Shown here one piece after another: positions 26,517-63,535 of a DNA stretch of 64,000 bases. Every line of letters begins with the position of its first letter. The first letter of the stretch is position 1. Both the position numbers and the translations under genes were made by a program. Source of the DNA: a virus (lineage: Duplodnaviria > Heunggongvirae > Uroviricota > Caudoviricetes); the IMG/VR virus record IMGVR_UViG_2648501802_000002. The stretch is one strand, 5' to 3'. The notes beneath the pieces were generated by a model. It saw only the letters and a list, made by a program, of their open reading frames with translations. It was not told the DNA's origin and did not search any database.

Positions 26517-27080
26517 ATGCTGAATAATAGAGACATGAATATTAATGAACTTAAAGACTGTATTCACTATGAAGTAATCGGTAGCGAGCGTCCTTTCTCC
26601 TGGCGAAAGGCAATTGTTCGCGCAATAAAACATAGAAGAGTTCGTTATTTATTTTGGTGGCGCATAGCCAAATACCTTTTTGATAAAGGCGGATACTGTC
26701 GGAAGATTGCGGGGAAAATGGAACGTTTCATTCTTGATAAATATAGTGTAACAGTCCCTTTAACTGTAAATATAGGGAAAGGCTTTGATATTTCTTATCT
26801 CAACGGTGTTGTTATCGGTCACAAAGTAACCATTGGTGAAAATTGTTCAATAAAACCAGGGGTAACTATTGGGCTACGTGGTGATTTTAATGATATGGAT
26901 ATTGTTATAGGACATAATGTGACCATTGGTTGTAATGCCACCATTCTTGGTGGCAAAGTGCGTATAGGAAACAATGTCACAATAGGTGCTCATGCATTGG
27001 TATTGCATGATATTCCTGATGATTCAACATTCATCACTAAATTTCAGTCTGAAGTTATCTGCTCGTCCTCTTGCACATAA
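26517..27080 (+). CDS. Hexapeptide-repeat (left-handed beta-helix) acetyltransferase, AT-rich cargo
   Basis: 187-aa ORF with tandem hexapeptide repeats ([23 protein letters not shown]...[34 protein letters not shown]); 3' end overlaps the convergent tfa stop by 37 nt. Confidence 0.7.
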
Positions 27081-30677: not shown

Positions 30678-31517
30678 TCAGGCATCGCTATCCAGCAGCA
30701 AATCATCTGCGCGGGAGCGATCAAACGTAGGCGTTGCTTTCACAATAGTGCCGCCCGGCGTTGCAGTGATCGGGGCACTAATCGACGTAACTCCGGCAAG
30801 CGAAGTTGTATCCGAAGTTTCAAACCAGCAGTACGCTTTTTCGGTATCAGAAATCTCGTTCAAAGTGATCATGTCGGCCTGTTCATTTACAACAACCGAC
30901 AAATAGAGCGTAAGCCCATCAAACACTATATGCAGTGGCAGTAGAGGCTTTACGAACTGATTAAACTTTCTGAGAATTTCTTCTGTAATTGCGGACTGAT
31001 CTATCGTGCCAGTAATACCCATTGTCCTGGCCAGGTCGTTTATGGGAATACTGATCATCCCTCTGGAAGTCAGAAACATCTCGCCGAATGTGCCGCCAGT
31101 AGTCTCCAGTGTGCTTTCTGGTATTAGAACTGTGCCATAGGGATGACGCTCAAGGTCCACCGGTGCATATATCGGATCCCATAAAACAGAAATACCGTTA
31201 AATTCGCGGTAAATTGTCTGGTTTATAGGACGTTCAGTTCCCTTAAAGTGGATCTCATCAAGCCGCTGTTGTAACAACATCGGAACGGAAGATGAGTTCG
31301 AGGTTCTGATAGTAAAGAACTGGCCAAGTTCATTTGTCCTGGTCTCCAGATCCTCCTTGCTCATGGAGAAAATAGACTTCCGGTTGGTAATTCGCTCCAA
31401 CCATGGGTCAACAAAGGTGTCCATCATTGACTGAACCAAATCAGCCAATGATTTATAGAGCAATGACTTTTGCTTAGCTGATGTAAGCCGGTTATTAAAC
31501 CAGGAACGCTGCATCAC
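30678..31517 (-). CDS. Baseplate/tail structural protein
   Basis: 279-aa ORF in tail module, overlapping stop/start with upstream gene. Confidence 0.35.
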   Translation of the reverse strand: MMQRSWFNNRLTSAKQKSLLYKSLADLVQSMMDTFVDPWLERITNRKSIFSMSKEDLETRTNELGQFFTIRTSNSSSVPMLLQQRLDEIHFKGTERPINQTIYREFNGISVLWDPIYAPVDLERHPYGTVLIPESTLETTGGTFGEMFLTSRGMISIPINDLARTMGITGTIDQSAITEEILRKFNQFVKPLLPLHIVFDGLTLYLSVVVNEQADMITLNEISDTEKAYCWFETSDTTSLAGVTSISAPITATPGGTIVKATPTFDRSRADDLLLDSDA

Positions 31518-32947
31518 TCCTCCTCATACGAAATATTAAAGGTGGAGCTTTCTGTATCCAGATAAACGAAATCGTAAAAGCCGTTGGACTCATTCCACTC
31601 GACAAATTCCAGATAAAAGTCGCGGAAATAACCCAGCGTTTCGATAAACGCCCAAACGTCTTTTTTCTTAATCAGGATGTACTTTCCGACGCGGTTCGGA
31701 TCAAAGAAAGTTGAGTCGCGCCCAAATTTTGTTTCCAGTGCCGACTTCAGCTCATCGGTCACATTCTCAATGGTCAGGCTTGCCGATATCCGTCCGGTGA
31801 TGGTTATCTTAAATGGTAGTTTTCTGACCTCTTTATAAGAGAATTTCTTGTTCAGTTCATTCGGTACCTTCTTAAAGGCAGTCAGGATCATTTCTTCAAG
31901 CTCTGACTGGCTTTTATTTGGATGCCATCCTGAAATAAATATCTTATTGATATTCTGAACATTATAAGCACCATCTAATTTCTCTTGCTGGCCTTCGCCC
32001 CATGCCTTTACCCAGGACAGCCCCGGGATGTTACGAACCAGAAAATACGTATAGTCCCCGCCCCATACGACCTGATCATCATAGGCAAGGTAATATTGTG
32101 CACGGTTACGTGTGATCTCCGTTGTTTCAGCATCGGTACCTGCGGTTATAGGTGTCGTTGTCTTAACTGAAATCAAATTAGCTAAATCAGCCGCAGAATC
32201 GACAGGCGTCAGGTTTTGGCCAGCAACCAGGGTTATATCGCCGTTGGTGCACCATACCTTAAGCGTAATTGTCGAACCTTCTGGCGGTATTTGCCCAATT
32301 AGCCCATCGCCGAATCGAACCCCCAACTGCTCGGATGGTTTATAAAACTCAACGTAGACCTGGCTTTTACTACCGGCTAACCGGAACATAGTGCTGGAAG
32401 ACCACTGCGTGGTCTTCCCATCGGTTGTCACGAATACTTCCAGCTTATAGCAGACAGCAGTAAGAGCCTTTGATAACACGACTTCCAGAAATTCTTTGGC
32501 TGCCGTAACGGTATATGTCACCTCCTGGATTTCCAACTGTGCCACTTCTACCGTACCGGTGCCGTCAACCAACCTGCATACATCCATAGTCATGTAAGGG
32601 TACTGGTCGTCAGATATTAAAGGCATGTTTTTGGGGATTACCGCTGGGGCATCTTCACTTGTGGCGGTGATCTCAATCATCCCCGATGACGGTGTTGGCT
32701 TGGTACCAACATAACTGTTCGTTTCTGCCGCAGCCAGGATAGAGGAACGCCGCGTCGCGGTCGATATAAAGCCTTCAGCCAGCGCCGCATCGGCATACTG
32801 AAAGCACCTGTAGACAATCTGGGTAATAAACAATGTCAGCATCGAGACAAATTGAGAGCCGACAAACTTCGACCAGAATGAATCTTTCTCGACAAGCTCT
32901 TCAAACTCTGCACGAATACTGTCTTTAGTCGGTGTTGTTTTACTCAT
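31514..32947 (-). CDS. Baseplate protein (J-like)
   Basis: 477-aa ORF in tail module between sit-like and fibre genes. Confidence 0.4.
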   Translation of the reverse strand: MSKTTPTKDSIRAEFEELVEKDSFWSKFVGSQFVSMLTLFITQIVYRCFQYADAALAEGFISTATRRSSILAAAETNSYVGTKPTPSSGMIEITATSEDAPAVIPKNMPLISDDQYPYMTMDVCRLVDGTGTVEVAQLEIQEVTYTVTAAKEFLEVVLSKALTAVCYKLEVFVTTDGKTTQWSSSTMFRLAGSKSQVYVEFYKPSEQLGVRFGDGLIGQIPPEGSTITLKVWCTNGDITLVAGQNLTPVDSAADLANLISVKTTTPITAGTDAETTEITRNRAQYYLAYDDQVVWGGDYTYFLVRNIPGLSWVKAWGEGQQEKLDGAYNVQNINKIFISGWHPNKSQSELEEMILTAFKKVPNELNKKFSYKEVRKLPFKITITGRISASLTIENVTDELKSALETKFGRDSTFFDPNRVGKYILIKKKDVWAFIETLGYFRDFYLEFVEWNESNGFYDFVYLDTESSTFNISYEEE

Positions 32948-33303
32948 AGCACCACGTCCTGTGTGATAGTTATATCCCTGATACGAATGGATATTTTCAA
33001 CTTATCAAAAGCATCTCCCTCGGCTACTGACAAGCCAGAAATCGGTATGTCAGGTAAATCTACCGTCAGTTTTTGCAACAGCATTGCCTCAACCGCAATT
33101 TGAACATGCGACAAGTTGGTCGGTTCGTGTTTAAACTGCGGTAAAACATTGCCCCATGACGGATCTCCGTATACCTCACCCTGATAAGTGTTTAGCCACT
33201 CATATAAACGAGCGCCCCAGGCCTCCTCCTGGGACTCATACGTTTTTACGCCGGATAACTCCAGCGTCAGCAAAGGATCAATTTCGTTATTGTTGGCCAT
33301 CAA
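32944..33303 (-). CDS. Small baseplate-associated protein
   Basis: 119-aa ORF translationally coupled between sit-like and baseplate genes. Confidence 0.35.
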   Translation of the reverse strand: MMANNNEIDPLLTLELSGVKTYESQEEAWGARLYEWLNTYQGEVYGDPSWGNVLPQFKHEPTNLSHVQIAVEAMLLQKLTVDLPDIPISGLSVAEGDAFDKLKISIRIRDITITQDVVL

Positions 33304-36300
33304 TCAACTCTCGCGTAGTCATTCATCAACGGATCATCAATTGACAGTGGCACCGTGCGCATAACGCCCGGTTGAGGCGTGCTGACCTTTACGACAGTTC
33401 CCTGGCCTTTCGCCGAGTCTTTAGTGTGCTCTTCAATCCTGGCAAGCAATGAGGTCATCTGCGCAAACAGCCGCTTCGTTTCACCATCAAGTGAAACGGT
33501 ATTATCAGCCAACTGCATTGTCGGCTTGGCACCAGAGCCGCCAAGGTCACTAATAACCTGTCCGTCTATCTGCATACGACCGGTTGGTTGCTGCAAATCG
33601 TTGGCGGCAGTCGTCACCTGGGACGTGGAGGCTGGTTGAGGAGAGTTATTTGAGCGCATTCCCCGGGCATTAATGAGTTTGTCATACAGCCCATCAATCC
33701 CCATTTGTGCACCGAGTTGGTCAAAGTAACTTGAGTTGTTTGCTACCGGACGTGCCTCTTCAACTGGCATAGGTGTATCAACATACACATTGCCAGCAGC
33801 CGTTGCGGTTCCCCTTCCTCGTGCACGTTCTTCGAGGGTTCCCTGAACGACTTCCCGACGCATCCCCCGACCATTCATGAATTTGTTGACCAGATCGTTA
33901 ACGCCAACAGCATTACCGATTTTGTCTACCAAACCGCCTTTCTCAAACGGGCTATCACCAGGGGTAAACGCCAGACCAGTAGACTGATCGATAACGGCGT
34001 TATCAGGCAGTGGTCCCCTCACTCCATATTGCGCCCCACCCTGTGCTCCTGCTCCAGGTGTATAGATTTCACCACCTAAATAGCGAGCACGATGAGTATT
34101 GACCTTGATCGCGTACTCACGGTTTTCTTTCGATAAGTCACCTGTGCCTTTTTTCCACTTATTGATAGTGCCAAACCCAGCATTATATGCAGTGATGGCC
34201 TCGTTTAAGTCTCCATTGGCTTGCTTCAGATACTTGCTCATGAGAAGAGCCGCAGCTTCTGCCGATTTCACAGGATCAAATGCATCCTGTTCCGATATCC
34301 CTGTCTCTTTACGAGCAATACTCGTGAACTGGAACATCCCGAGTGCGCCACCACTTAACTTTCCATCTGGTGATCTTGTAAGCGGAGACTTTGCGTTAGG
34401 ATCCCCTCCTGATTCAGTTGCCGCAATCGAGTAAAGAGTGCCTTCAGGAAGGCCATATTTATTCTCTAGTTCAGCAAAATACGGAGCCAGCTTATCCAGA
34501 TTTGCCTTACCTTCAGCGCCAAGGCTTCCGACTTTTACATCTAAGTTGCCATTGTTGTAGGTATCCGCAGCTTTCTGAATGTCATTCCTAGTGCCAGTAG
34601 TATTAAGCGACGATGATGATGAGCTATTTTGACCAATAGCATTATCAATTTTCTGCAACGCTCGATTGCCCGTTTCTACGGCATTTGCATTGATAATCTG
34701 ATTGGCAGTTTCTTTAACTGTTTTATTGCTATCTTTCGCCGTCTCTAGGGATGCATTTACAACACGAGTGACAATATTAGCCTTTTTAGGGGTATATTCA
34801 GTCTTAGGAGCATTGTCCTCCTGACTTTCTTTAGCTGGTGTTTTTAATTCAGGTGTAACCTCTTTCGCATCCGCTTTGTTGACTAGCTTTGATGCAACCC
34901 AGGCCACAGGGGTGCTCTGAACAGCGGCATCGGCAACCTTACCAGGAAGCTCTTTTGCGGCATTCCATAGATTACTACCAGCCTCTTTAATGTATTTTCC
35001 CGGGTTCTTAATGAAATCAATTGCACTATCAATTGCATCACTGAAAACCTTTTTCAGGTTATCGACAGTAAAGAAGTCTTTGATGGCGTCTAATTTTTCG
35101 TTCAGACTCTTGGTTGTGTCACTGAACCAGGCTGAAATAGCATCGCCAATCTTGGCTGTGTAATCGTTGAATGTTGTGGATATGGTGTCACCAAGGTTAG
35201 AAATATATGTTTCTAAATTGGTAATCCCACTATCAATGGCCTGGGCAATACTTTCCGTCGAAAATGATTGCAACATATTGCCGATATCCTCAAATCCAAG
35301 TGATTTGAGAACGCCACCAATGGCATTGCTAATACCAGATACCAGTCCTCCCATATCGAGAACGTTAGCCAGTGTATAAGCCGCTTTTTGCTGAAAAGAT
35401 GGATCTTCCCCATCCTTAAGCCCAAAGGTCCGACGTTGTGCTTCTGTATCATTCCAACCGGTTACCGCATCATAGATACCTCCAGCCACCGTGCCGACTA
35501 GCGGAATTGCGCGTAAAGCCCCCTTTGCAAAAGCCTTAACACCTAGTTTCTCCAATCCCTTAGTTGCAAGTTTTCCGGCACCGCGAGTAGCCAATTCGCC
35601 AGCTTCTTTGGCAGCAGCTTTTTTCCCACCAAAGCCCAATAAGCTTGCAACTTTTTTTATACCTAAAGCGCCTAGTGCCATCGAGCCAACTTTCTTTAGT
35701 GCCCCACGGCAAAAAATAAGGGAAGCAATACCACCGGCCCCCTTCCCTAACAGGCTAAATAATTTGGACAGCAAGCCGCCCTTCTTTTTCCCGGTGTTTT
35801 TGGCTATCTGATCAAGGGCGCTGAGAATCTTGTCATTGCCCTCTTTAATTTCGCTGGTCTGATCCTGAAGTTCCTGAACCGTCCGTTTTTGGGTGTTAAC
35901 CTGAACGACATCGGCACTACTTTGCGATTTACGCCTAAAAAAACCTTTTCTACGGCTGTTATCGTCATTGCCACGAATCACATCGGCAATTGACTTTCTG
36001 GCACCATTAAGCGAACCGCCAACTTCTTTTGATATTCCGCCAAGCTCCTTTCCTGCTGCCCACAATGGACCAGCAACGGCATAACCTAAAGCATCGACGG
36101 CACGAGTCTCTGAAGGGTTACCTATGCCTTCAGCTACTTTTGACAGTTTTTTTAATAAACCCGATTCAGCATTTAGACGCTCATCATCCTCTTTGCGCCT
36201 AGCTTTTTCAGCACGTTCAGCACGGGCATCTTCCGCTGCGGCCTTACTCCCTGACTTCCCAATAAAACGACCACGCGCATCGCGTTGGTTTTGGCTTTTT

Positions 36301-36728
36301 TGCGCACCGCCTTTTTGACCGAACATTTCGCGAGCGTGTTCGGCTGCTTCGGTCCGTTGTGCCTTTACATCCTCTGGTATAGCCTTCCTGCGTCGTTTTT
36401 TACCCTTTGGTGTGGTTGATTTGGCCCGCTGTTCCTGTTGAGCAACATCTTCCTGAACTACACGAGAAACGTCCCCTAAGTTAAGCCGTTTCATTGCCTC
36501 AACAATAGGGTCCACTGATGGCGCATTGGCCACAAAGTCTGGCCGTGAATTTTCGATTGTGCGATTTAATGCCGACACACTGCGAGAGACAGGATCAACA
36601 GTTGCAACGCGCCCCCCTTTCAAATCTTCAACAGCTTCCCGGATACCTGCAAGCTCTTCCAGCTCTTTTGCGCTGGCGGTTTCAACTGTCCTTATAACAT
36701 CGTCAATGTTGGCGTTTTTTCGTTCCAT
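33300..36728 (-). CDS. sit: Sit-like tape-measure/injection protein with soluble lytic transglycosylase domain
   Basis: 1142-aa ORF; Gly/Ala/Lys-rich repetitive centre; SLT motifs ATESGGDPNAKSP...GALGMFQF...AYNAG; size matches recollection of P1 Sit. Confidence 0.6.
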   Translation of the reverse strand: MERKNANIDDVIRTVETASAKELEELAGIREAVEDLKGGRVATVDPVSRSVSALNRTIENSRPDFVANAPSVDPIVEAMKRLNLGDVSRVVQEDVAQQEQRAKSTTPKGKKRRRKAIPEDVKAQRTEAAEHAREMFGQKGGAQKSQNQRDARGRFIGKSGSKAAAEDARAERAEKARRKEDDERLNAESGLLKKLSKVAEGIGNPSETRAVDALGYAVAGPLWAAGKELGGISKEVGGSLNGARKSIADVIRGNDDNSRRKGFFRRKSQSSADVVQVNTQKRTVQELQDQTSEIKEGNDKILSALDQIAKNTGKKKGGLLSKLFSLLGKGAGGIASLIFCRGALKKVGSMALGALGIKKVASLLGFGGKKAAAKEAGELATRGAGKLATKGLEKLGVKAFAKGALRAIPLVGTVAGGIYDAVTGWNDTEAQRRTFGLKDGEDPSFQQKAAYTLANVLDMGGLVSGISNAIGGVLKSLGFEDIGNMLQSFSTESIAQAIDSGITNLETYISNLGDTISTTFNDYTAKIGDAISAWFSDTTKSLNEKLDAIKDFFTVDNLKKVFSDAIDSAIDFIKNPGKYIKEAGSNLWNAAKELPGKVADAAVQSTPVAWVASKLVNKADAKEVTPELKTPAKESQEDNAPKTEYTPKKANIVTRVVNASLETAKDSNKTVKETANQIINANAVETGNRALQKIDNAIGQNSSSSSSLNTTGTRNDIQKAADTYNNGNLDVKVGSLGAEGKANLDKLAPYFAELENKYGLPEGTLYSIAATESGGDPNAKSPLTRSPDGKLSGGALGMFQFTSIARKETGISEQDAFDPVKSAEAAALLMSKYLKQANGDLNEAITAYNAGFGTINKWKKGTGDLSKENREYAIKVNTHRARYLGGEIYTPGAGAQGGAQYGVRGPLPDNAVIDQSTGLAFTPGDSPFEKGGLVDKIGNAVGVNDLVNKFMNGRGMRREVVQGTLEERARGRGTATAAGNVYVDTPMPVEEARPVANNSSYFDQLGAQMGIDGLYDKLINARGMRSNNSPQPASTSQVTTAANDLQQPTGRMQIDGQVISDLGGSGAKPTMQLADNTVSLDGETKRLFAQMTSLLARIEEHTKDSAKGQGTVVKVSTPQPGVMRTVPLSIDDPLMNDYARVD

Positions 36729-56243: not shown

Positions 56244-57554
56244 TTAAATCCGAAGTGATGTGACTCTTCCGGTCGGTTTGACAATAGGGAATTGCTTAAC
56301 GATGAAATAACCTCCTGCATCATTCGGGTGATCATTGCCAGATTTTTTATCAGGCTCCCCCTTCTCATCCCAGACCTGTTGCTCCAGAGATTCGGCATAT
56401 AACGGGCAACGCTTCACATTAACTTTATAGCGACGCTCACCATTGGCATTGCAGAACATTGCATTCATTGAGTTAACGCGATCTTTTACTGGCGGGTTCG
56501 AGCTGTTCACCACAACGTTAAAACCAGCCTGCTTAAGCTGGGCTATATCCGTCGTACTTGCGTTACTTGATTTTCTGGAATCCCCGGAAGCATCTGGATA
56601 AATATAAATTTCCCTCACTTTCCGGTAATCATTCCCATCATACAGCCAGAAGCGTTCTTTAATGATGCGGATCATATCCGGCGTATCGTAGGCATTGATG
56701 ATTTCAGTTACCGCACATGGAAGCCCCAAACGCAGCACATGGACGATTCCCGCCATCTTTCCAACGTTAAAATCCATCCCAATATAAATCGGCTCCCCTG
56801 GCTGCTCCACTTCTTCGCAATTATTCAGTTTCCGGTCAAACTGATGGTAAACAGTACCACTTGTCAGGTTAGTAAACTGTCCTCGAAGATAGGCTTTAAT
56901 CAGCTCTGGAGGGTATGATTCAAGAAGCGAAGGAATGTAATCTGCTGGCAGGTTCTTTTCATTATCGAAAGTAGATGCCTGCACCAGACCATACAGTGAG
57001 GCCAGCTCTGTTTTTTCACGCACGGCTTTAACAAACTGCTCGTAGACAAATTTGAATCCTTCCGGCGTGGTTGTAACGTCAATACCGTTGCGAAGTCCAT
57101 CAATCTTATAACGCATACGTGCAATTATCTTGCGCCACGCCGTTCTGGCTTTTTCCTTCGGCAAAATGTCCAGTTCATCCACCAACGCATTACCAATTTT
57201 GAAACCGACGATCGTTTGTGGCTTCTCCATCGATCTGCAGATAGTGGTTCCCCGATACTGGCGTCCGTAATAAAAGTGAACCTCTTTATTTCCCTCATTA
57301 ATTTTTACGTTCAATCCCCAGTCAGCAGCAACTTCTTCCACTGTAGGGTAAAAAATATCGCGAATTTGGGGATACGTTGGCGCAAAATATCCCTGATTTA
57401 TACCTGGATGCTCCCAAATCCCCTTGCATATGCCGCCACACCCAACCCATGTTTTGCCCGAGCCAAAACCAGCAATATAGGCTTTAAATTTATGGGGCAT
57501 TGAAAGAAATCGCGCCTGAGGCACATTAAGCGTCGGAGAGATCATCTTCATCAC
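56244..57554 (-). CDS. Terminase large subunit
   Basis: 436-aa ORF with Walker A AGFGSGKTW and C-terminal nuclease-like region. Confidence 0.85.
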   Translation of the reverse strand: MMKMISPTLNVPQARFLSMPHKFKAYIAGFGSGKTWVGCGGICKGIWEHPGINQGYFAPTYPQIRDIFYPTVEEVAADWGLNVKINEGNKEVHFYYGRQYRGTTICRSMEKPQTIVGFKIGNALVDELDILPKEKARTAWRKIIARMRYKIDGLRNGIDVTTTPEGFKFVYEQFVKAVREKTELASLYGLVQASTFDNEKNLPADYIPSLLESYPPELIKAYLRGQFTNLTSGTVYHQFDRKLNNCEEVEQPGEPIYIGMDFNVGKMAGIVHVLRLGLPCAVTEIINAYDTPDMIRIIKERFWLYDGNDYRKVREIYIYPDASGDSRKSSNASTTDIAQLKQAGFNVVVNSSNPPVKDRVNSMNAMFCNANGERRYKVNVKRCPLYAESLEQQVWDEKGEPDKKSGNDHPNDAGGYFIVKQFPIVKPTGRVTSLRI

Positions 57555-58620
57555 TCCTTACTCTGGCATCAACCACATTAATATTGATCGCCACAGGCTG
57601 GGGATGTTCATTATCTTCCACCGTTTCGATCTCTTTGCGCAGCTTCTGGTTTTCCATTCTGCGCCGTTCAATTTCCAGTTCCTGTAGCCGTTTATCTGCA
57701 CATAAAGCCCCGCCAGCAGAAAACAAACGCAACAATTCACGCCGGGCGGCAGCCTTATCCTCCAGCAGGATCTCAACGCCGAATTTTCCGAATTTTGCCC
57801 CTGCATATAATTGCCGCGCATCCCCATCAAGCAGAGTGGTATCAGCCATATAAAGCTGTCCCGTTCCCTCACCGCAGCACTTCGGGCAGTCCGGATTGGG
57901 TATGGCGTTATCAACAAAGCCGAGGCCTCCATATTCCGGTTCGGGTTTGCCATCTCTGGAAGCCTGCGCCGCTGCCTTGTCGAATTCTGCTATATCGCGC
58001 CACTGGTAGAGATGATTCTCGCCCCAGCAATAACGGCAGTTAACACGGCGAAATTGTGCAAGCTGATTGGGGTCGGCCAGGACAATAGCCATCAACTGAC
58101 TCACTAGTAAATCCAGGTCTGCGGTATAGCGTTTCTGGTACTGATTGCGGAAGTAGCTGATAGCGCGAAAAACCCTGGCATTTCTAAGCATACGACTGGC
58201 GTTGCTGTTAGCTGTCGCACCTTGCCCCTCATAACCGGCTAGTCGGTACGCCTCTGTCGGCTTTTTACCCTGAGCAACAAGCATCGCAAACTTAGCCTGC
58301 TGGTCAGAAATGCCGAATTCATCGGGACAGAACGAAAATTCCTCCGCGTCGCCCTCATTCAGGCCCGCATCGAATACTGGCTTTTTTTCCTGAGATTTTT
58401 CGTTCCGCTTTTGTGCAGTCTGCGCAGATTTTTTCTGCGCACTTTTTTGCGCAGTTTTGCACATTTCTGTCTGCGCATTTTTCGGAGTTTTTTTGATGTA
58501 ACGACGGGCTGTTGCGTAATTCAGTCCCCTTGCTTCACACCATGCCACCGGAGATATACCGGAGCGGGTGTATTCAGCAATATACTCCTGCTGCAACGCC
58601 CCCCAGTCCGGTCTGCTCAT
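57526..58620 (-). CDS. Terminase small subunit
   Basis: 364-aa ORF; N-terminal HTH (MSRPDWGALQQEYIAEYTRSGISPVAWCEARGLNYATARRY); overlaps terminase large start. Confidence 0.65.
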   Translation of the reverse strand: MSRPDWGALQQEYIAEYTRSGISPVAWCEARGLNYATARRYIKKTPKNAQTEMCKTAQKSAQKKSAQTAQKRNEKSQEKKPVFDAGLNEGDAEEFSFCPDEFGISDQQAKFAMLVAQGKKPTEAYRLAGYEGQGATANSNASRMLRNARVFRAISYFRNQYQKRYTADLDLLVSQLMAIVLADPNQLAQFRRVNCRYCWGENHLYQWRDIAEFDKAAAQASRDGKPEPEYGGLGFVDNAIPNPDCPKCCGEGTGQLYMADTTLLDGDARQLYAGAKFGKFGVEILLEDKAAARRELLRLFSAGGALCADKRLQELEIERRRMENQKLRKEIETVEDNEHPQPVAININVVDARVRSDEDDLSDA

Positions 58621-58623
58621 CAG

Positions 58624-58875
58624 TTAGTCCTGATTTTTATCCACCCTGAGTAGTTCGCGCAGAGCAAAGGCATCCCCTTTTCTGGCAAGCTTAAACAATG
58701 CCGCTCGTAACTCGGCTTCACCTTTCGCTCTGCCCTTACGGATGGCCGCATAAAAATCTGTCATTGCTTCCCGATTTTCTTTCAGTCGGTTCAGATCAAC
58801 ATCCAGAACGTCAGCGATTTGTTGTGCAGTCATCCGGCACGCTGCCAGAGACTCGACTTTCGAATACGGAATCAT
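58624..58875 (-). CDS. Small hypothetical protein upstream of terminase
   Basis: 83-aa helical ORF; overlaps upstream ORF by 65 nt so true start uncertain. Confidence 0.3.
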   Translation of the reverse strand: MIPYSKVESLAACRMTAQQIADVLDVDLNRLKENREAMTDFYAAIRKGRAKGEAELRAALFKLARKGDAFALRELLRVDKNQD

Positions 58876-59764
58876 TTGTCACCCCCATTGATATGCAGGG
58901 TGTCTTCTTCCTGTATTTTTCGTGAAGGATTTTTACTGCAGCGTTGTTCCAGGTGACCTGATGGTGAATGCGTTTATGGCTGGCACCCATCAGTGAGATT
59001 TTTACGCACGACGGCGCATACATGACGGAGTAAAAACTTTTAACGTAGGTTCCGGAATCCAGATACAGCTCGGTCATTCCGCCGCTGTTTTTCTGCGTCT
59101 GTTTCTGCCCTAACTGGACAGCACCGATCGTCATAAACAATTCACCACAGCGACCGAGATTCGTGTACGTATTCACATCCTCGTTAATGCGCCCCATGAA
59201 TGAGAACGGTCGATCAACCGAACAGATAAAGCTGTTCATTGCCTTGCGTTTCACCCACGAAGCATGGCCGCCATTGTCACCAAGAAAATCCCCGCCCTGC
59301 GACATAGCGATGGAAAGAGCAGGTATTGATTCGTAGTACGCCAGCATTTCAGAAAGGATCGCATCCAGTTTCCTTATCGGAAAATAGGCCTGGTCATAGT
59401 TGCGATCCACCCGAAACTGGAACTCGTGATAATCATCATCGAGCTGAATGAAGTATTTACACCCGACCAGTTTTGCCAGGTCGAAACAGGCATTACGGGC
59501 GTAAAAAATTGAGCGGCGGTCACAGAAATTATCGGCTTCGTCAAAACGACTGGCGATATCGGCTTTGGAAAACACCAGCACCTGTTCACCAAATTCAGCC
59601 ATGTACTGATTCCGTGTCTTATCTTCATCATCAACAACGATAAAAATTTTCCCGGTATAGCCAGCACGACGCAACGTCCGGTAAGTCAGAACTTTGTCCG
59701 GTCGCCCGTGAGTCAGAATAAAGGCGCAAAAATCATCACGCATATTCCTCCTCCTCACCACCAT
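58811..59764 (-). CDS. Hypothetical protein with GT-A-like fold features (DXD-type motifs)
   Basis: 317-aa ORF; FILTHGRPDKVL...IFIVVDDED and FIQLDDDY resemble nucleotide-sugar transferase motifs; function unverified. Confidence 0.4.
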   Translation of the reverse strand: MVVRRRNMRDDFCAFILTHGRPDKVLTYRTLRRAGYTGKIFIVVDDEDKTRNQYMAEFGEQVLVFSKADIASRFDEADNFCDRRSIFYARNACFDLAKLVGCKYFIQLDDDYHEFQFRVDRNYDQAYFPIRKLDAILSEMLAYYESIPALSIAMSQGGDFLGDNGGHASWVKRKAMNSFICSVDRPFSFMGRINEDVNTYTNLGRCGELFMTIGAVQLGQKQTQKNSGGMTELYLDSGTYVKSFYSVMYAPSCVKISLMGASHKRIHHQVTWNNAAVKILHEKYRKKTPCISMGVTNDSVFESRVSGSVPDDCTTNR

Positions 59765-60527
59765 GCATGATCTCCACCATGCGCTGCGTCATCCGGACAA
59801 ATCCATTTTCAATAGCCTGCTGATAATCAATGATCACCAGCGCCGACTCCTCGAAAAAACACTGAATTTCAGAGGGGGCGTGAGCGTAATAGTCCGCAAT
59901 TCTGCTGAAATTAAACACCGTGTGACGTTCTGCCGCACACAGGAGGAATTTCTCAATATCAGGCTCAAGGGACGCCGAACGTATCCGGCTGATCAGCTCC
60001 TGAGTTTTCGTATCGTCGTACAGTTCACTGATATCCGGTTTACCGCCCGACGGCTCATAAACAGGCGTATCAATTTTCGTCGCATACGGCTCCTCCTCAT
60101 TTCCTGTACCGGGCAAAACATCCGTCAACAGTTCATCAATTTCTGTCGGGATGAAGCCTGTCAGGGAGACATCAAAATCAGCATTGATTAGGTCCGACAG
60201 CTCCATCCGCAACAGATCTTCATCCCAGCCAGCATTCATCGGCAGGCGATTATCTGCCAGGCGGTACGCCTTTTTCTGCTCATCCGTCAGGCCAGACAGA
60301 ACAATGACCGGAACAGAATCCATTTTGAGCATTTCAGCCGCCATAACACGACCGTGACCCGCAATAATTTCGCCCTTTTCGTCAATCAGCACCGGATTAG
60401 TCCAGCCGAATTGCTTAATACTTTCTACCAGTTGTGCCACCTGCTCAGGGCTGTGCGTCCTGGCGTTGTGCGCATACGGTGACAATTCTTGTAATGGGCG
60501 ATAGACTATCTTTAATTTCTCGCTCAT
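59736..60527 (-). CDS. ParB-like nuclease domain protein (YnaK-like)
   Basis: 263-aa ORF; ParB N-terminal domain motif (VLIDEKGEIIAGHGRVMAAEML). Confidence 0.7.
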   Translation of the reverse strand: MSEKLKIVYRPLQELSPYAHNARTHSPEQVAQLVESIKQFGWTNPVLIDEKGEIIAGHGRVMAAEMLKMDSVPVIVLSGLTDEQKKAYRLADNRLPMNAGWDEDLLRMELSDLINADFDVSLTGFIPTEIDELLTDVLPGTGNEEEPYATKIDTPVYEPSGGKPDISELYDDTKTQELISRIRSASLEPDIEKFLLCAAERHTVFNFSRIADYYAHAPSEIQCFFEESALVIIDYQQAIENGFVRMTQRMVEIMHGGEEEEYA

Positions 60528-60664: not shown

Positions 60665-62140
60665 TTAGGAGCGCCAAAAAAAACCTGAAAACAATATAAT
60701 AACAGGATAAATTTCAAGGCGACCAAGAATCATAGCTATGCACATTAAACATTTTGCAATGTCATTAAGCACTCCGAATGACGATGCAGTAGCCCCAAAA
60801 CCTAATCCCATATTATTAATACATGCAGCCACTGTTGCAAATGATGTAAGAAAATCATATCCCATACCATTTAACACCAGTATAAAAAACACCGTGAAGA
60901 GAGTATAAAGAAAAAAGAAACTCCATACAGACCTCATTACACGATCTGTAACTATCTTCCCTCCTACATTTACACTCAACAACGCTCTGGGATGAGAAAG
61001 CTGATTTATCTCGTGTTTGCTTTGTTTGAAAAGTATAAGAAATCGAAGTGACTTAATTCCACCACAAGTTGAACCTATACATCCCCCAAAGAAACTTGAC
61101 AACAGCAAAAACACTATCGTGTGCGTGGGCCAACTTGCATAATCCTGCGTAGCTAAACCATTATCAGTGAGCATGGAGCTGGCAAGAAAAAACGAATGAA
61201 TAAAACTTCCATGCAAGTCATACATACCTATATGCCAGACCTGGAAAGAGGTAACAATGATCACCCCTAAGGCTATTAACAGAAAGAAACGAAGTTCAAT
61301 ATCTCTGATTAAAGGTTTTATCGTTTTCCTGCTAATAACAATATACCAAAGAGTGAAGTTGAAAGCCGATAGCAGGGAAAAAGAACCAGCCACCAGCTCA
61401 ACCAAATAGTTATTAAAATATCCGATACTCTCGCTATGAGTTGAGAAACCACCAAGCGAAACTGTGGAAATCCCGTGACAAATAGCATCAAACAAAGGCA
61501 TTCCTGCAAGTCTATAACAGACAATACAAGCAATACCTAATAAAGAATAAGTTATCCACAGTGTCCGTGACGTATCGGCCAGGCGGGGAGTGAGTTTGTC
61601 ATCCTTAAATGGCCCCGGCATTTCTGACTGATAAAGCTTTGCACCACCAATACCCAATAATGGCAATACAGCAACCGCCAGAACAATAACTCCTAAACCA
61701 CCTATAAAATTTAACTGTGACCGATAGTACAAATATGCCCGAGGTAATGAACTAACATCATCAATTACAGTTGCTCCTGTTGTTGTTATTCCAGAAACCC
61801 CTTCAAACAGAGCATCAATGAACGTTAAATTAAGTTCTGAGTCAATCCATAAAGGGAATGCACTAATAACAGAAAACAAAATCCAAAACATTACAATTAT
61901 AATAAACCCATCACGGGTACGTAATTGAATGCCAGATTTCTTAGTTGTATACCACGCTCCGCCACCAATGCAAAAAAATATAACGAAAGTTATAAAGAAA
62001 ACGAACAGGCTTTTTTCTTTATAAAACAATGCTACAACCATTGGTGGCAACATTGAAAGACTATAGAGCCAAACCAGGAACCCACACATATGAGTAACAA
62101 CTCTTACATGAGATGTATTCATATCTAAATATTCTTTCAA
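60665..62140 (-). CDS. trkG: TrkH/TrkG-family potassium uptake membrane protein (Rac trkG-like cargo)
   Basis: 491-aa polytopic membrane ORF, AT-rich; N-terminus MNTSHVRVVTHMCGFLVWLYSLSMLPP as I recall for E. coli TrkG; sits between lysis cassette and packaging genes as in Rac. Confidence 0.8.
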   Translation of the reverse strand: MKEYLDMNTSHVRVVTHMCGFLVWLYSLSMLPPMVVALFYKEKSLFVFFITFVIFFCIGGGAWYTTKKSGIQLRTRDGFIIIVMFWILFSVISAFPLWIDSELNLTFIDALFEGVSGITTTGATVIDDVSSLPRAYLYYRSQLNFIGGLGVIVLAVAVLPLLGIGGAKLYQSEMPGPFKDDKLTPRLADTSRTLWITYSLLGIACIVCYRLAGMPLFDAICHGISTVSLGGFSTHSESIGYFNNYLVELVAGSFSLLSAFNFTLWYIVISRKTIKPLIRDIELRFFLLIALGVIIVTSFQVWHIGMYDLHGSFIHSFFLASSMLTDNGLATQDYASWPTHTIVFLLLSSFFGGCIGSTCGGIKSLRFLILFKQSKHEINQLSHPRALLSVNVGGKIVTDRVMRSVWSFFFLYTLFTVFFILVLNGMGYDFLTSFATVAACINNMGLGFGATASSFGVLNDIAKCLMCIAMILGRLEIYPVIILFSGFFWRS

Positions 62141-62259: not shown

Positions 62260-62724
62260 TTACTTTAAACACTGCTCGGTTATGTATTGCTGAGCACCTT
62301 CAAGTTGGGCCTGCATCATTACCAGTCGTTCCCGGAGGGTGAAATAATCCCGTTCAGCGGTGTCTGCCAGTCGGGGGGAGGCTGCATTATCCACGCCGGA
62401 GGCGGTGGTGGCTTCACGCACTGACTGACAGACTGCTTTGATGTGCAACCGACGACGACCAGCGGCAACATCATCACGCAGAACATCATTTTCAGCTTTC
62501 GCATCAGCTAACTCCTTCGTGTATTTTGCATCGAGCGCAGCAACATCACGCTGACGCATCTGCATGTCAGTAATTGCCGCGTTCGCCAGCTTCAGTTCTC
62601 TGGCATTTTTGTCGCGCTGTTCTTTGTAGGCGATGGCGTTATCACGGTAATGATTAACACCCCATGACAGGCAGACGACGATGCAGATAACCAGAGCGGA
62701 GATAATCGCGGTTACTCTGTTCAT
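62260..62724 (-). CDS. Rz: Spanin inner-membrane subunit Rz
   Basis: [55 protein letters not shown]... near-identical to lambda Rz; start set at MNRV. Confidence 0.8.
62319..62504 (-). CDS. Rz1: Spanin outer-membrane lipoprotein subunit Rz1 (embedded in Rz, +1 frame)
   Basis: 61-aa ORF with lipobox LVVVGC and proline run [15 protein letters not shown]. Confidence 0.75.
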
Positions 62725-63218
62725 TGCTGACCCCACAAACAGATTTCACGCTCAATCTCACGACGAGTCATGAGACCTTTCCATTGCTTACCGCCAGCAT
62801 ATGTCCAGCGACGTAGCTGATCACATGCGCCTTTGATATCGCCCTGGTTTATTTTGCGAAGAAGCGTCGATGTTCTGAAATTGCCAGCACCCACGTTGTA
62901 AACGAATGAGTAAAGAGCGCCGCGCGTTGTTTCCGGTATATCGACTTTGATGTACGGGTTAATTTGTCTGGCGACCGTGGCAAGGTCTTTATTCAAGAGT
63001 GTTTTGCATTCTGCTTTGGTATACGTTTTACCGAGCATGATGTCTTTTCCTGTATGCCCGTGACATACAGTCCATACACCAACAATATCTTTGTATGGTA
63101 TGTAGCTGACACCTTCCAGACCATCGTTACCACTTGGGCCAGTGATTAACACTGATGCTATAGCAATTGCTCCGCCACCAATAGCAGCAGCAACGACTTT
63201 TCGTAATGATGGAGGCAT
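62721..63218 (-). CDS. R: P21 R-type SAR endolysin (GH24 lysozyme)
   Basis: 165-aa ORF; [27 protein letters not shown] signal-arrest-release domain and lysozyme core; matches remembered P21 R. Confidence 0.85.
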
Positions 63219-63433
63219 TATTCACCTCTCGCAGCCTTGCGCTTATCTTCTTTAATCTTGAAATAAAGGTTTGTCAGGTACGTCAGCAGGCCAAATACCA
63301 GACTACCCAGCACACCGATTGCAGCCCACTGTGACGGAGTTACTCTATCGAGCAACTGTAAAAACCAGTAGCCAGCACTGCCTGCGGAGGTGCCGTAGGC
63401 AATGCCTGTTGAAATTTTGTCCATGGATTTCAT
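63218..63433 (-). CDS. S: Pinholin S21 (dual-start holin/antiholin)
   Basis: [71 protein letters not shown], 71 aa; dual-start MKSMDK; matches remembered S21. Confidence 0.8.
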
Positions 63434-63535
63434 AGCCTCACCTCCGCACGGAACGGATGGCATAGTTATTATGTGTAGGCTTTCAGACACATCAATCAGA
63501 GCCTTAATTGATATATATGCTGGAGACGATGCAAT

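Follow-up and report, generated by a model that had tools for sequence, protein, structure and literature searches.

A predicted TAGT-family glycosyltransferase paired with a ParB-like protein ahead of the terminase in a Rac-like Escherichia coli prophage

Results

Two overlapping genes upstream of the terminase

The window analysed here, the whole stretch of 64,000 nucleotides of IMG/VR record IMGVR_UViG_2648501802_000002, is an intact Rac-like lambdoid prophage of E. coli. Its late operon carries, between the lysis genes and the terminase, two overlapping genes; these and all other features described below lie on the minus strand. The first, at 59736..60527, encodes a 263-residue protein of the YnaK family of ParB/Srx proteins (Pfam ParB_N; PHROG 620, E = 8.5e-91). 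The second lies in an open reading frame of 317 amino acids with an ATG start, at 58811..59764, which a sequence-only reading of this DNA had located between a ParB-like gene and the terminase small subunit, where it is indeed found. Downstream of it are the small (57526-58620) and large (56244-57554) terminase subunits, with matches to Pfam Terminase_2, Terminase_6N and Terminase_6C across the region 56244..58620.

A small open reading frame at 58624..58875, not mentioned in that reading, sits between the second gene, whose 3' end it overlaps, and the small subunit. It has 83 codons (69 amino acids from 58833 in RefSeq), resembles the middle part of a terminase small-subunit family (PHROG 309, E = 8.3e-23, positions 145-218 of 319), and is outside the conserved module of other phages.

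The true start of the second gene is probably the ATG at 59743, which codes for Met8 of the 317-residue frame, because the RefSeq protein (WP_001204037.1) and the homologues begin there; the alternative is the upstream ATG at 59764. With this start, the gene spans 58811..59743 and encodes 310 amino acids. Its ATG overlaps the stop codon of the ParB-like gene as ATGCGTGA, and GAGGAGGAGGA precedes the ATG. At this coupling junction (59736..59756), where the TGA of ynaK at 59736-59738 overlaps the ATG at 59741-59743, the codons GAG GAG GAG encode the C-terminal glutamates of the ParB-like protein and are also the Shine-Dalgarno sequence of the next gene.

Residues 1 to about 280 of the 310-residue protein form a conserved core, followed by a non-conserved tail (281-310) that is modelled with low confidence (pLDDT 53-60). 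The protein is basic, with a core pI of 8.6, and we found in it no signal peptide and no membrane or hydrophobic segment (maximum 19-residue hydropathy 1.08). The gene is under strong purifying selection: compared with its enterobacterial orthologues, pN is 0.12-0.27 and pS is 0.73-0.93, values given in place of dN/dS since synonymous sites are saturated.

Family, fold and active site

Judged from its sequence and its structural model, the 310-residue protein is a genuine sugar transferase of the TAGT (TET-associated glycosyltransferase) family, with a GT-A fold. This family, reportedly defined by Iyer et al. in 2013, corresponds to Pfam PF20691, which the protein matches over profile positions 4-205 of 205 with 121 bits (cutoff 27.5; E = 8.4e-35); the same domain is precomputed on all its close homologues. 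The match to PHROG 842 has E = 1.2e-103, and homologues with E < 1e-3 form 1,324 clusters at 50% identity. These matches lie well outside what chance would give. The AlphaFold2 model has a pLDDT of 89.6 and a pTM of 0.85. Compared with the PDB by Foldseek, it resembles, among the matches listed at E <= 0.001, GT-A-type nucleotide-sugar enzymes, nearly all of them glycosyltransferases; in BFVD, it matches TAGT-domain phage proteins, with E down to 1.4e-28, and a T-even-type beta-glucosyl-HMC-alpha-glucosyltransferase. A sequence search of the PDB with TAGT yields no match, and PADLOC assigns it to no defence system. In NCBIfam, nothing meaningful was matched by TAGT, by the sulfotransferase fusion or by the P-loop N-domain that some TAGTs carry as a fusion. 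The earlier suggestion of a GT-A-like, DXD-motif nucleotide-sugar transferase is thus borne out by PF20691, the AlphaFold model and the fold searches: structure prediction and profile searches gave a GT-A fold, with neither a nuclease nor a PAPS-reductase fold among the outcomes.

The active-site signature of DNA-modifying GT-A enzymes, R...DDD...ED(Y/F) (bioRxiv 10.1101/2023.12.21.572611), is kept, but its third motif ends in EDV rather than EDY/F. In what follows, residue numbers refer to the 310-residue form and conservation to a family alignment of 57 sequences. The arginine of the signature is Arg14 of the motif HGRPD (59702..59704); its DDD is D102-D104 of LDDDY (59432..59440), the predicted DXD motif for metal and nucleotide sugar; both are conserved in at least 90% of the sequences. 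The ED belongs to N187-E188-D189 in NEDVN (59177..59185), of which N187 and D189 are invariant. The two motifs that had first drawn attention to the frame, FIVVDDED and FIQLDDDY, are read directly from the sequence: the former contains D38-D41 (59621..59632), with D41 invariant, and the LDDDY of the latter proves in the alignment to be the conserved DDD motif of the family. Also invariant are H260 and H261 (58961..58966), which we take to be a candidate for the C-terminal metal ligand typical of GT-A enzymes.

The ParB-like partner

YnaK is strongly acidic, with a pI of 4.5 and a net charge of -25. Residues 1-140 (60108..60527) are predicted to form an N-domain with the ParB/Srx NTP-binding fold (PHROG 498, E = 1.2e-50; PADLOC MTase_II, E = 2.3e-38), in which residues resembling Boxes I, II and III (NPR, GHxR and DN) are largely conserved. 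A tblastn search against phages (407 records) shows that, in many sampled matches, this N-domain shares 30-54% identity with stretches covered by genes annotated as DNA methyltransferases, among them those of Streptococcus, Vibrio, Pseudomonas, Rhizobium, Wolbachia WO and Methanoculleus viruses. In such methyltransferases, which act on canonical bases, the ParB domain matches N-terminal positions of the methyltransferase profiles, and in several sampled phages the match lies near the record end or packaging genes. YnaK, by contrast, is a protein in its own right, has a C-domain of its own and is paired with a catalytic partner that would transfer a sugar. This kinship of its N-domain with DNA-methyltransferase genes points to DNA.

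The remainder of the protein, residues 141-263 (59739..60107), consists of a linker and a C-domain that we call TAGT-specific on the basis of co-occurrence: all 28 of the 28 phage records that have the C-domain, in the same phage groups as the TAGT matches, carry TAGT, and the C-domain was seen only beside TAGT genes. An invariant motif, Y148-x6-P155-x-Y157-E158 (60045-60086), is probably located in the linker; it is still kept in Vibrio phages, where the partner is reduced to the C-domain. Neither a helix-turn-helix nor any other recognisable DNA-binding domain was found in YnaK, and the conserved C-domain has no Pfam or PDB homologue; designed armadillo repeats, which appeared in a PDB profile search of this domain with E > 1e-3, were set aside as chance matches. 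The single-sequence structure model of YnaK has a pLDDT of 37. Given this extreme acidity and the lack of any recognisable DNA-binding domain, the role of YnaK may be not that of a DNA clamp but that of a regulator, of a DNA mimic or even of the substrate.

Pairing and distribution

A YnaK-type gene lies directly upstream of TAGT in 87 of 90 IMG/VR loci, in a count that rests on a six-frame HMM search, with spacings from -10 to +24 nucleotides; in most loci, the two genes overlap by 1-10 nucleotides. The three exceptions are two loci in which a domain is fused at the N-terminus of TAGT, and one in which the genes are 3.2 kb apart. The reverse search, starting from YnaK, finds TAGT in 80 of 80 IMG/VR loci. 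In GTDB, the pairing is present in 71 of 71 loci, which span upwards of 20 phylum-level groups of bacteria and one MAG labelled as an archaeon. It is also found in the haloarchaeal virus HHTV-2 and in phages of Lactobacillus, Nocardia and Porphyromonas. YnaK and TAGT are an obligate and translationally coupled pair. This partnership, together with the lack of the usual acceptor-making enzymes described below, goes beyond what had been read from the sequence at first.

In some 85-95 of 101 loci, the pair is followed by a terminase large subunit as the first large open reading frame downstream; these subunits belong to four different families. In Vibrio phages of 191 kb, the C-domain-only partner and TAGT stand among genes for a clamp, SSB, a primase and a helicase. 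Additions that would tailor a glycan accompany some members of the family: tandem or fused TAGTs, fusions to SAM-methyltransferases and fusions to sulfotransferases. Some variants of the module have an inserted phosphatase/sugar-phosphate nucleotidyltransferase gene, and some include a TagD/RfaE-like nucleotidyltransferase.

The TAGT gene is present in 867 of 5,426 complete E. coli genomes. The module also occurs in dairy Lactobacillus phages and in genomes of Veillonella, Bacteroides and Clostridia, many of which are gut-derived MAGs. Fragmented copies of TAGT are found in some phages of Lactobacillus delbrueckii (Ld17, LL-Ku and Ld25A). In the literature, we found neither an account of the ParB-TAGT module nor DNA-modification data for phages that carry it.

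Enzymes that would make an acceptor

Unmodified DNA offers no hydroxyl group for glycosylation. To our knowledge, all phage DNA glycosylation described so far begins at a hydroxylated pyrimidine (5hmC, 5hmU or 5-hydroxycytosine), and we know of no precedent for the glycosylation of a canonical base. Neither a TET/JBP dioxygenase nor a dCMP or dUMP hydroxymethylase is annotated or detected in the complete genomes of Lactobacillus phage c5 and phage phi jlb1, two small phages that also lack a C5-methyltransferase. The Rac-like prophages of E. coli SE11 and ST2747 likewise contain no TET/JBP dioxygenase or hydroxymethylase, no gp42 or alpha-glucosyltransferase homologue is annotated in the Rac-like prophage, and the tail region of the window holds no acceptor-making enzyme. 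Around 78 non-redundant loci, the 143 neighbouring open reading frames match 78 Pfam families, and the 25 most frequent of these include no hydroxylase. In short, the association that gives the TAGT family its name, with TET/JBP (5mYOX) enzymes or a source of 5-hydroxymethyl-pyrimidine, is absent from the loci examined. A C5-methyltransferase does occupy a variable slot in one of the two prophages SE11 and ST2747.

Comparison with known systems

One member of PF20691 is the beta-glucosyl-HMC-alpha-glucosyltransferase of T2 and T6, a phage-encoded, post-replicative enzyme that adds glucose to glucosyl-5hmC DNA (PMC13216743). The T6 protein belongs to the same Pfam family, with 37 bits, and a T-even-type homologue from Klebsiella phage PKO111 has the same GT-A fold as our model (E = 7e-8, TM 0.56). 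However, BLASTP finds no similarity between the T6 enzyme and TAGT (E = 1.6), and, at E <= 1e-5, T-even phages are absent from the tblastn matches of TAGT. A two-helix insert of about 24 residues (GGMTxLY...GTYVKSFYSV, around residues 222-242), found in this subfamily, is missing from the T6 enzyme. Its gene adjoins that of dCMP hydroxymethylase, in the replication region, and its reaction needs 5hmC and the alpha-glucosyltransferase; unlike the TAGT loci, the region of T6 that was examined has no annotated ParB-type gene. The product name attached to PHROG 842 derives from this T2/T6 enzyme. We found no orthology to that enzyme, with its accompanying dCMP hydroxymethylase and alpha-glucosyltransferase, and the name should not be transferred to the gene described here.

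A second group of relatives, which share the signature and the GT-A fold, are the 5mYOX-associated phage enzymes. They glycosylate 5hmC in DNA, and their R...DDD...EDY/F site is common to the base-J glucosyltransferase of trypanosomes, a likeness that we take from the literature; Pyle et al. also describe ParB-like and terminase genes near them (bioRxiv 10.1101/2023.12.21.572611). These enzymes act on 5hmC or 5hmU supplied by a neighbouring methyltransferase and dioxygenase, or by a ThyA-like enzyme, whereas no such supplier was found in the complete genomes examined here or recurred among the neighbours of TAGT.

For the partner, a close parallel is the pair 5mYOX176/ParB176, in which a DNA-modifying enzyme stands beside a cognate ParB-like protein whose N-domain binds nucleotides and is joined by a linker to a C-domain (PMC13229309). 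YnaK may have the architecture described there. Such ParB-like proteins, which have no DNA-binding domain, activate phage T-dioxygenases specifically on double-stranded DNA, and the specificity of each cognate pair that has been reported for them (PMC13229309) has its counterpart in the exclusive co-occurrence of the YnaK C-domain with TAGT. The adjacent cognate ParB-like gene is likewise common to both systems (87 of 90, 80 of 80 and 71 of 71 TAGT loci in the searches above). The enzyme, however, is a dioxygenase in one case and a predicted glycosyltransferase in the other, and the enzymes linked to the ParB-dependent class of 5mYOX are kinases, amidotransferases and amino-acid transferases, not glycosyltransferases (PMC13229309).

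Finally, the literature attributes a homologous glycosyltransferase domain to GREB1, a large protein of eukaryotes that reportedly transfers O-GlcNAc to the oestrogen receptor (PMC7968844) and that is neither paired with a ParB-like protein nor set in a phage genome. The E. coli TAGT protein is itself called 'GREB1-related protein' in UniRef and in part of the RefSeq records.

Discussion

We propose, tentatively, that the gene encodes a DNA glycosyltransferase which is expressed late, acts with the help of a ParB-like protein and marks phage DNA ahead of packaging, a reading that we rate as slightly short of probable. Phage DNA and a virion protein had both been named as possible targets at first; the evidence gathered favours DNA, and the most likely acceptor is phage DNA. 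The soluble TAGT would use a nucleotide-activated sugar and a divalent metal held by the DDD motif, and would work as a two-protein unit with YnaK, the product of the translationally coupled upstream gene, whose C-domain would be a dedicated adaptor. By analogy with the ParB-dependent thymine dioxygenases of phages, YnaK may activate TAGT or hold it on double-stranded DNA. The two genes, which immediately precede the terminase, would be expressed as part of the late operon, such that replicated DNA is glycosylated shortly before it is packaged and, once injected, is shielded from the nucleases of the next host. Against this DNA reading stand the lack of an acceptor-forming enzyme in the genomes and neighbourhoods examined, the lack of pairwise BLASTP similarity to the biochemically characterised T6 enzyme, and the report that the animal family member GREB1 glycosylates a protein (PMC7968844).

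If the target is DNA, YnaK and TAGT could be self-sufficient, the ParB-like protein gating the enzyme or clamping it on double-stranded DNA, and the sugar, or a tailored glycan in some lineages, being put directly on DNA with canonical bases. This conjecture, which is rather doubtful, implies that a sugar is linked through N or O to an unmodified base or to the backbone.

The main rival to a DNA target is a protein target, which we consider unlikely. TAGT would then glycosylate YnaK as lead candidate, perhaps at the tyrosines, both invariant, of its linker motif Y-x6-P-x-Y-E-P, or else another phage or host protein, and the ParB-like protein would be a substrate or a glyco-regulated factor. 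The lack of a hydroxylated base would no longer pose a problem. YnaK is the sole protein conserved with TAGT across bacteria and archaea, and its Tyr/Pro/Tyr-Glu motif survives even in the C-domain-only version of Vibrio; enzymes of the GT-A type that act on protein side chains (ppGalNAcT2, ColGalT1 and SunS) are among the structural neighbours, and GREB1, as reported (PMC7968844), is a protein O-GlcNAc transferase. However, every prokaryotic or viral relative with a known acceptor acts on DNA, and the clade of the YnaK N-domain is fused or adjacent to DNA methyltransferases. Terminase and structural proteins are ruled out as a common target because their families differ between phages, and a glycosylated ParB would have no apparent function.

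It is improbable, in our estimation, that TAGT is a conventional glycosyltransferase of 5hmC, 5hmU or glucosyl-5hmC in DNA whose acceptor is supplied in trans, that is, a portable remnant of a larger TET/JBP pathway, which in phages without a hydroxylase would be idle or limited to rare oxidised bases. The family is named for its TET/JBP association, and its known acceptors are hydroxymethyl-pyrimidines or sugars on them; in metaviromes, ParB and glycosyltransferase domains co-occur with 5mYOX genes, at 27% and 31% (PMC13229309); and the fragmented copies in Ld17, LL-Ku and Ld25A indicate that the gene can decay. An idle remnant, however, fits poorly with a two-gene module kept, with intact catalytic residues, in hundreds of hydroxylase-free lineages, with the strong purifying selection on TAGT, and with the gain by the module of its own donor-synthesis and glycan-tailoring genes.

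Least probable of all is a target that is neither DNA nor protein, such as a nucleotide, RNA or, for lysogenic conversion or superinfection exclusion in the manner of TarP or Gtr, a cell-envelope polymer: the closest solved structures are GT2-like, with acceptors of the polysaccharide or teichoic-acid type, Pyle et al. liken phage GT-A enzymes to the prophage TarP (bioRxiv 10.1101/2023.12.21.572611), some module variants include a TagD/RfaE-like nucleotidyltransferase, and ParB-fold proteins bind NTPs (PMC12704722). TAGT, however, shows neither the membrane association nor the envelope-polymer setting (Gtr flippase or teichoic-acid genes) of TarP/GtrB-type enzymes: it is devoid of a signal peptide and of a membrane or hydrophobic segment, and its gene adjoins the terminase within the late operon instead of occupying the position of a lysogeny-expressed moron. 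The gene is also present in the cos phage c5, annotated without an integrase, and in a virus of haloarchaea, hosts that have no envelope polymer in common with E. coli, and it is always coupled to that of a ParB-like protein.

What makes the locus of interest is the conjunction of an enzyme conserved under strong selection without a maker of hydroxylated pyrimidines, a private ParB-like partner, and a site where DNA passes to the terminase. Either DNA is modified through a new acceptor chemistry, or the function of this large branch within the "DNA glycosyltransferase" family is a different one; in both cases the annotation in PHROGs and RefSeq phage records, beta-glucosyl-HMC-alpha-glucosyltransferase, would have to be corrected. 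The proposed activity, if real, would extend the role of ParB-like activators from dioxygenases to glycosyltransferases. Should canonical DNA be glycosylated directly, this would be a previously undescribed DNA modification chemistry, carried by phages of more than 20 bacterial phylum-level groups, by archaeal viruses and by the Rac-like prophages of about one sixth of sequenced E. coli strains. Since the module occurs in many E. coli genomes, in dairy Lactobacillus phages and in gut-derived MAGs, it may affect restriction evasion, host range, the design of phage therapy, and base-calling in nanopore or PacBio reads of induced prophage DNA.

E. coli K-12 has no TAGT gene: a deletion in its Rac prophage starts inside ynaK and leaves 87 amino acids of the YnaK protein. 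We considered ydaY as a possible remnant of TAGT in K-12 and rejected it, as ydaY sits in the tail region of intact relatives. Free of TAGT, K-12 offers a clean host in which YnaK and TAGT can be tested.

A GT-A-type glycosyltransferase gene before the terminase

The sequence-only reading had proposed a GT-A-like sugar transferase of 317 amino acids at 58811-59764, from the motifs FIVVDDED and FIQLDDDY. The open reading frame exists, on the minus strand, and both motifs can be read in it; its true start is likely the ATG at 59743, which gives a protein of 310 amino acids. This is the RefSeq start of the identical protein in E. coli SE11 (WP_001204037.1), and the homologues all start at the matching position. 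This ATG overlaps the stop of ynaK, the gene upstream, as ATGCGTGA, with GAGGAGGAGGA before it. The C-terminal 30 residues or so are unconserved, and the enterobacterial orthologues stop near residue 289.

The protein is a bona fide member of Pfam family PF20691, the TET-associated glycosyltransferases (TAGT), scoring 121 bits where the curated cutoff is 27.5, and PHROG 842 is matched too. From 57 diverse homologues, AlphaFold2 gives a confident model (pLDDT 89.6, pTM 0.85), with low confidence in the C-terminal tail. Searched with Foldseek against the PDB at E <= 0.001, it retrieves GT-A-type nucleotide-sugar enzymes, nearly all of them glycosyltransferases, among which are ppGalNAc-T2, SpsA, GnT-I, ColGalT1 and SunS; E values about 1e-4 and TM scores of 0.40-0.45 indicate that TAGT is without a close solved relative. 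Among viral models, the same kind of search finds TAGT-domain proteins, with E down to 1e-28, and a T-even-type beta-glucosyl-HMC-alpha-glucosyltransferase at E = 7e-8. Pyle et al. (bioRxiv 10.1101/2023.12.21.572611) describe an R...DDD...ED(Y/F) signature in phage DNA-modifying GT-A enzymes and in the base-J glucosyltransferase; it is reproduced here by the residues that the family conserves or keeps invariant (R14, D41, D102-D104, N187, D189 and H260/H261). Family match, model, fold and signature agree: the sugar-transferase assignment was correct. TAGT has no hydrophobic segment and is predicted to be soluble; its core is basic, with a pI of 8.6.

PHROGs and RefSeq phage records name the protein after the T-even beta-glucosyl-HMC-alpha-glucosyltransferase. 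We reject this orthology: BLASTP between TAGT and the T6 enzyme is non-significant, the T6 enzyme lacks a two-helix insert specific to the subfamily of TAGT, and the T-even genomic context is absent. Of 5,426 complete E. coli genomes, 867 carry a near-full-length copy of the gene at 95% nucleotide identity or more, under the label "hypothetical" or "GREB1-related".

An obligate partner

The ParB/Srx-type protein YnaK, encoded at 59736-60527 on the minus strand, is not an incidental neighbor. The pairing was checked both ways, on loci recovered by TAGT and then on loci recovered by YnaK. Of the 90 loci recovered by TAGT, 87 have a YnaK-type ORF immediately upstream in the same orientation, at -10 to +24 nucleotides; two of the three exceptions have an extra N-terminal P-loop domain on TAGT, and the third has 3.2 kb between the genes. 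Conversely, TAGT lies downstream in all 80 loci recovered by YnaK, adjacent in 68 and separated by one inserted gene in 12. With one genome per species in GTDB, the pairing holds in 71 of 71 loci with sufficient upstream sequence. The hosts include Proteobacteria, Bacillota, Bacteroidota, Ignavibacteria, Verrucomicrobia, Kiritimatiellae, Planctomycetota, Acidobacteriota, Chlorobi, Spirochaetes, candidate-phyla-radiation lineages and one archaeon-labeled MAG. The pair is found too in haloarchaeal virus HHTV-2, in Lactobacillus phages phi jlb1 and c5, in Nocardia phage NTR1, and in a Porphyromonas phage (27% identical) whose ParB aligns with YnaK end to end.

From residue 1 to about 140, YnaK is a ParB/Srx N-domain; a conserved linker and C-domain follow (141-263), for which searches of Pfam and the PDB found no relative. 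The N-domain alone occurs in 407 records of a phage database and, in many of those sampled, it is 30-54% identical to stretches under annotated DNA-methyltransferase genes. The C-domain occurs in only 28 phage records, in the same phage groups as the matches to TAGT. In Vibrio phages of 191-195 kb (pv27, L177 8459-9888, and likewise phiKT1024, Va1 and phiTY18) the partner keeps only the linker motif and C-domain, 139 amino acids without the ParB N-domain. Because the two halves differ so in distribution, the C-domain is a putative TAGT-specific adaptor, and the ParB domain would be a generic accessory common to DNA-modifying enzymes.

Both domains of YnaK are very acidic (pI 4.5, net charge -25 in 263 amino acids); the family median pI is about 4.5, the opposite of the basic TAGT. 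Such acidity is out of the ordinary in a ParB supposed to associate with DNA, and recalls DNA-mimic anti-restriction proteins.

Genomic position of the pair

The window is an intact relative of the E. coli Rac prophage. Its minus strand carries, in order, holin (63218-63490), lysozyme (62721-63218), Rz/Rz1 (62260-62736), trkG (60665-62140), ynaK, TAGT, a small ORF, TerS, TerL and portal. The potassium-transporter moron trkG, which sits likewise between lysis genes and ynaK in K-12 Rac, splits the pair from the lysis cassette as a same-strand cargo gene. In K-12 MG1655 (NC_000913.3 1425377-1425980, locus L178) ynaK is cut to 87 amino acids and abuts ydaY, and TAGT, terminase, portal and head genes are deleted, so that K-12 lacks TAGT and is a natural null host. 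We considered ydaY as a remnant of TAGT and rejected it: it is a tail-region gene.

The small ORF (58624-58875, minus strand; 83 amino acids, 69 in RefSeq) overlaps the unconserved 3' tail of the TAGT gene by 23-65 nucleotides. Its match to a terminase-small-subunit PHROG is confined to the central positions 145-218 of 319. The TerS that follows it, of 364 amino acids, shows a weak N-terminal resemblance to an IS66 TnpA-type HTH. The small ORF may encode a split or accessory protein of packaging specificity.

In 101 non-redundant TAGT loci we classified the large ORF that comes first downstream, within 2.6 kb. Terminase large subunits dominate, with counts that may overlap in part (Terminase_6N 38, Terminase_3 33, GpA 17, TerL_ATPase 6), and a long TerS comes first in 8 more; the four terminase families are distant to unrelated. 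The Vibrio phages depart from this, with the pair among sliding clamp, SSB, primase and helicase genes. Both contexts are those of DNA transactions.

A missing acceptor

The family is named after its association with TET/JBP dioxygenases, and all its biochemically defined prokaryotic and viral relatives act on 5hmC, 5hmU or a sugar already on them (PMC13216743; bioRxiv 10.1101/2023.12.21.572611). The TAGT of the window lacks that association, and a source of the acceptor base is absent from the phages and prophages examined. The complete genomes of c5 (31.8 kb) and phi jlb1 (38.3 kb) encode no dioxygenase, ThyA-like hydroxymethylase or C5-methyltransferase, and their larger unassigned ORFs have no match in Pfam. 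The Rac-like prophages of SE11 and ST2747, otherwise near-identical, have no dioxygenase or hydroxymethylase; they differ in a variable slot between the replication genes and DUF1367. In ST2747 (L259 15806-19305) this moron slot holds a DNA cytosine-C5 methyltransferase, which no dioxygenase accompanies, together with an O-methyltransferase and an ATPase on the opposite strand; in SE11 (L001 30827-34086), a DUF262 (GmrS-like) protein, a TPR protein and an IS3. In the window, the tail region has only structural genes and an acetyltransferase, and no acceptor-base enzyme. A Pfam census covered 143 ORFs, upstream or intervening, of 78 non-redundant loci and matched 78 families; the frequent ones are ordinary replication, recombination and lysis genes and an inserted nucleotidyltransferase, and neither TET_JBP nor thymidylate-synthase-like families are among the 25 most frequent.

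"Solitary" homologues of TAGT were left unexplained in 288 of 753 phage genomes by a 2026 NAR study of T4 glucosyltransferases (PMC13216743), and Pyle et al. (bioRxiv 10.1101/2023.12.21.572611) set aside about 65% of their glycosyltransferase contigs, which had no neighboring base-modification enzyme. Our literature search found no description of the module formed by the YnaK C-domain and TAGT, nor DNA tests on any carrier phage. As an annotation, glycosyltransferase is an ordinary answer; the sharp question, and one that is cheaply answerable, is posed by a gene, present in one sequenced E. coli strain in six, that is obligately paired with ParB and has no acceptor pathway.

A proposed role and its alternatives

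We tentatively propose, at somewhat less than even odds, that YnaK and TAGT form a late-expressed, post-replicative DNA glycosylation unit. TAGT would be the catalyst, and YnaK an NTP-binding adaptor that activates it or keeps it on dsDNA. Late expression would limit a potentially toxic activity to the lytic phase and would mark DNA shortly ahead of packaging, much as Mu Mom or late-expressed phage methyltransferases do. The weak point is chemical, since canonical DNA offers no hydroxyl acceptor, and we know of no precedent for glycosylation of an unmodified base; the strongly novel version, with canonical DNA as the acceptor, takes about half of the proposal's likelihood and is itself doubtful. 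In favor of DNA are the known acceptors of the family, the kinship of the YnaK N-domain with stretches under methyltransferase genes, the position of the pair before terminase or in a replisome module, and the need for a target common to bacteria and archaea, for which DNA qualifies. There is also a precedent: ParB-like proteins reported to have a nucleotide-binding domain and a C-terminal domain, and no DNA-binding domain, switch on phage thymine dioxygenases, specifically on dsDNA and in cognate pairs (PMC13229309). Those systems resemble YnaK-TAGT in the pairing and differ in the catalytic partner.

The extreme acidity of YnaK is unexpected for a DNA clamp; it would fit a regulator occupying the DNA groove of the enzyme, a DNA mimic, or a substrate. 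Glycosylation of a protein instead of DNA has YnaK as its obvious candidate, with an invariant Y-x6-P-x-Y-E motif, and GREB1 as a precedent (PMC7968844); set against the DNA acceptors of the known relatives, we hold it unlikely. That the acceptor is supplied in trans, or that TAGT is an idle remnant, is more improbable still. Synonymous sites between TAGT and its enterobacterial orthologues are saturated (pS 0.73-0.93) while pN is only 0.12-0.27, hence the gene is under strong purifying selection. Other cellular targets are the least probable of all.

Variants of the module

Two TAGT genes stand in tandem in a Sphingomicrobium prophage (L002 2207-3938), and fusions join TAGT to an N-terminal P-loop domain with a Walker A motif, to a SAM-methyltransferase at either end, to a carbohydrate-type sulfotransferase, or to a second TAGT (family proteins P0151, P0186, P0199; P0128, P0130, P0167; P0164; P0147, P0148). 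In 12 of 80 loci (L110 5722-6717, and L101, L104, L114, L119, L121, L127, L130, L133, L140, L147 and L162) the inserted gene that separates ParB from TAGT encodes 331 amino acids, a histidine phosphatase of the alpha-ribazole-phosphatase type fused to a sugar- or polyol-phosphate nucleotidyltransferase resembling TagD and RfaE domain II; presumably it makes a dedicated activated donor. These glycan-building additions point to the use of a nucleotide-activated donor and to a product that can be an elaborated glycan.

A fragmented or partial TAGT, in two tblastn pieces or 14-63% of the length, occurs in several c5-related phages of Lactobacillus delbrueckii (KJ564037, Ld17; AY739900, LL-Ku; KJ564036, Ld25A; KF188410, phiLdb): some lineages of dairy phages show decay of the module. 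One metagenomic phage with the P-loop N-domain on its TAGT has a radical-SAM gene (L013 80-1042), distantly like MoaA and viperin and under all family cutoffs, immediately upstream of ParB. Another metagenomic phage carrying the pair has four consecutive GT2-family glycosyltransferase genes right after the major capsid gene (L015 17837-20316, L016 8659-11138), which could be a virion-glycosylation cluster. In the window itself, the part beyond the lambda-like gpJ tail-tip gene (at 31514-36728 on the minus strand and 26517-27080 on the plus strand) encodes an SLT lytic-transglycosylase domain in a protein of 1,142 amino acids, a baseplate-J/gp6-like protein, tail-fibre and fibre-assembly proteins and, from the opposite strand, a hexapeptide-repeat acyltransferase whose gene resembles cargo.
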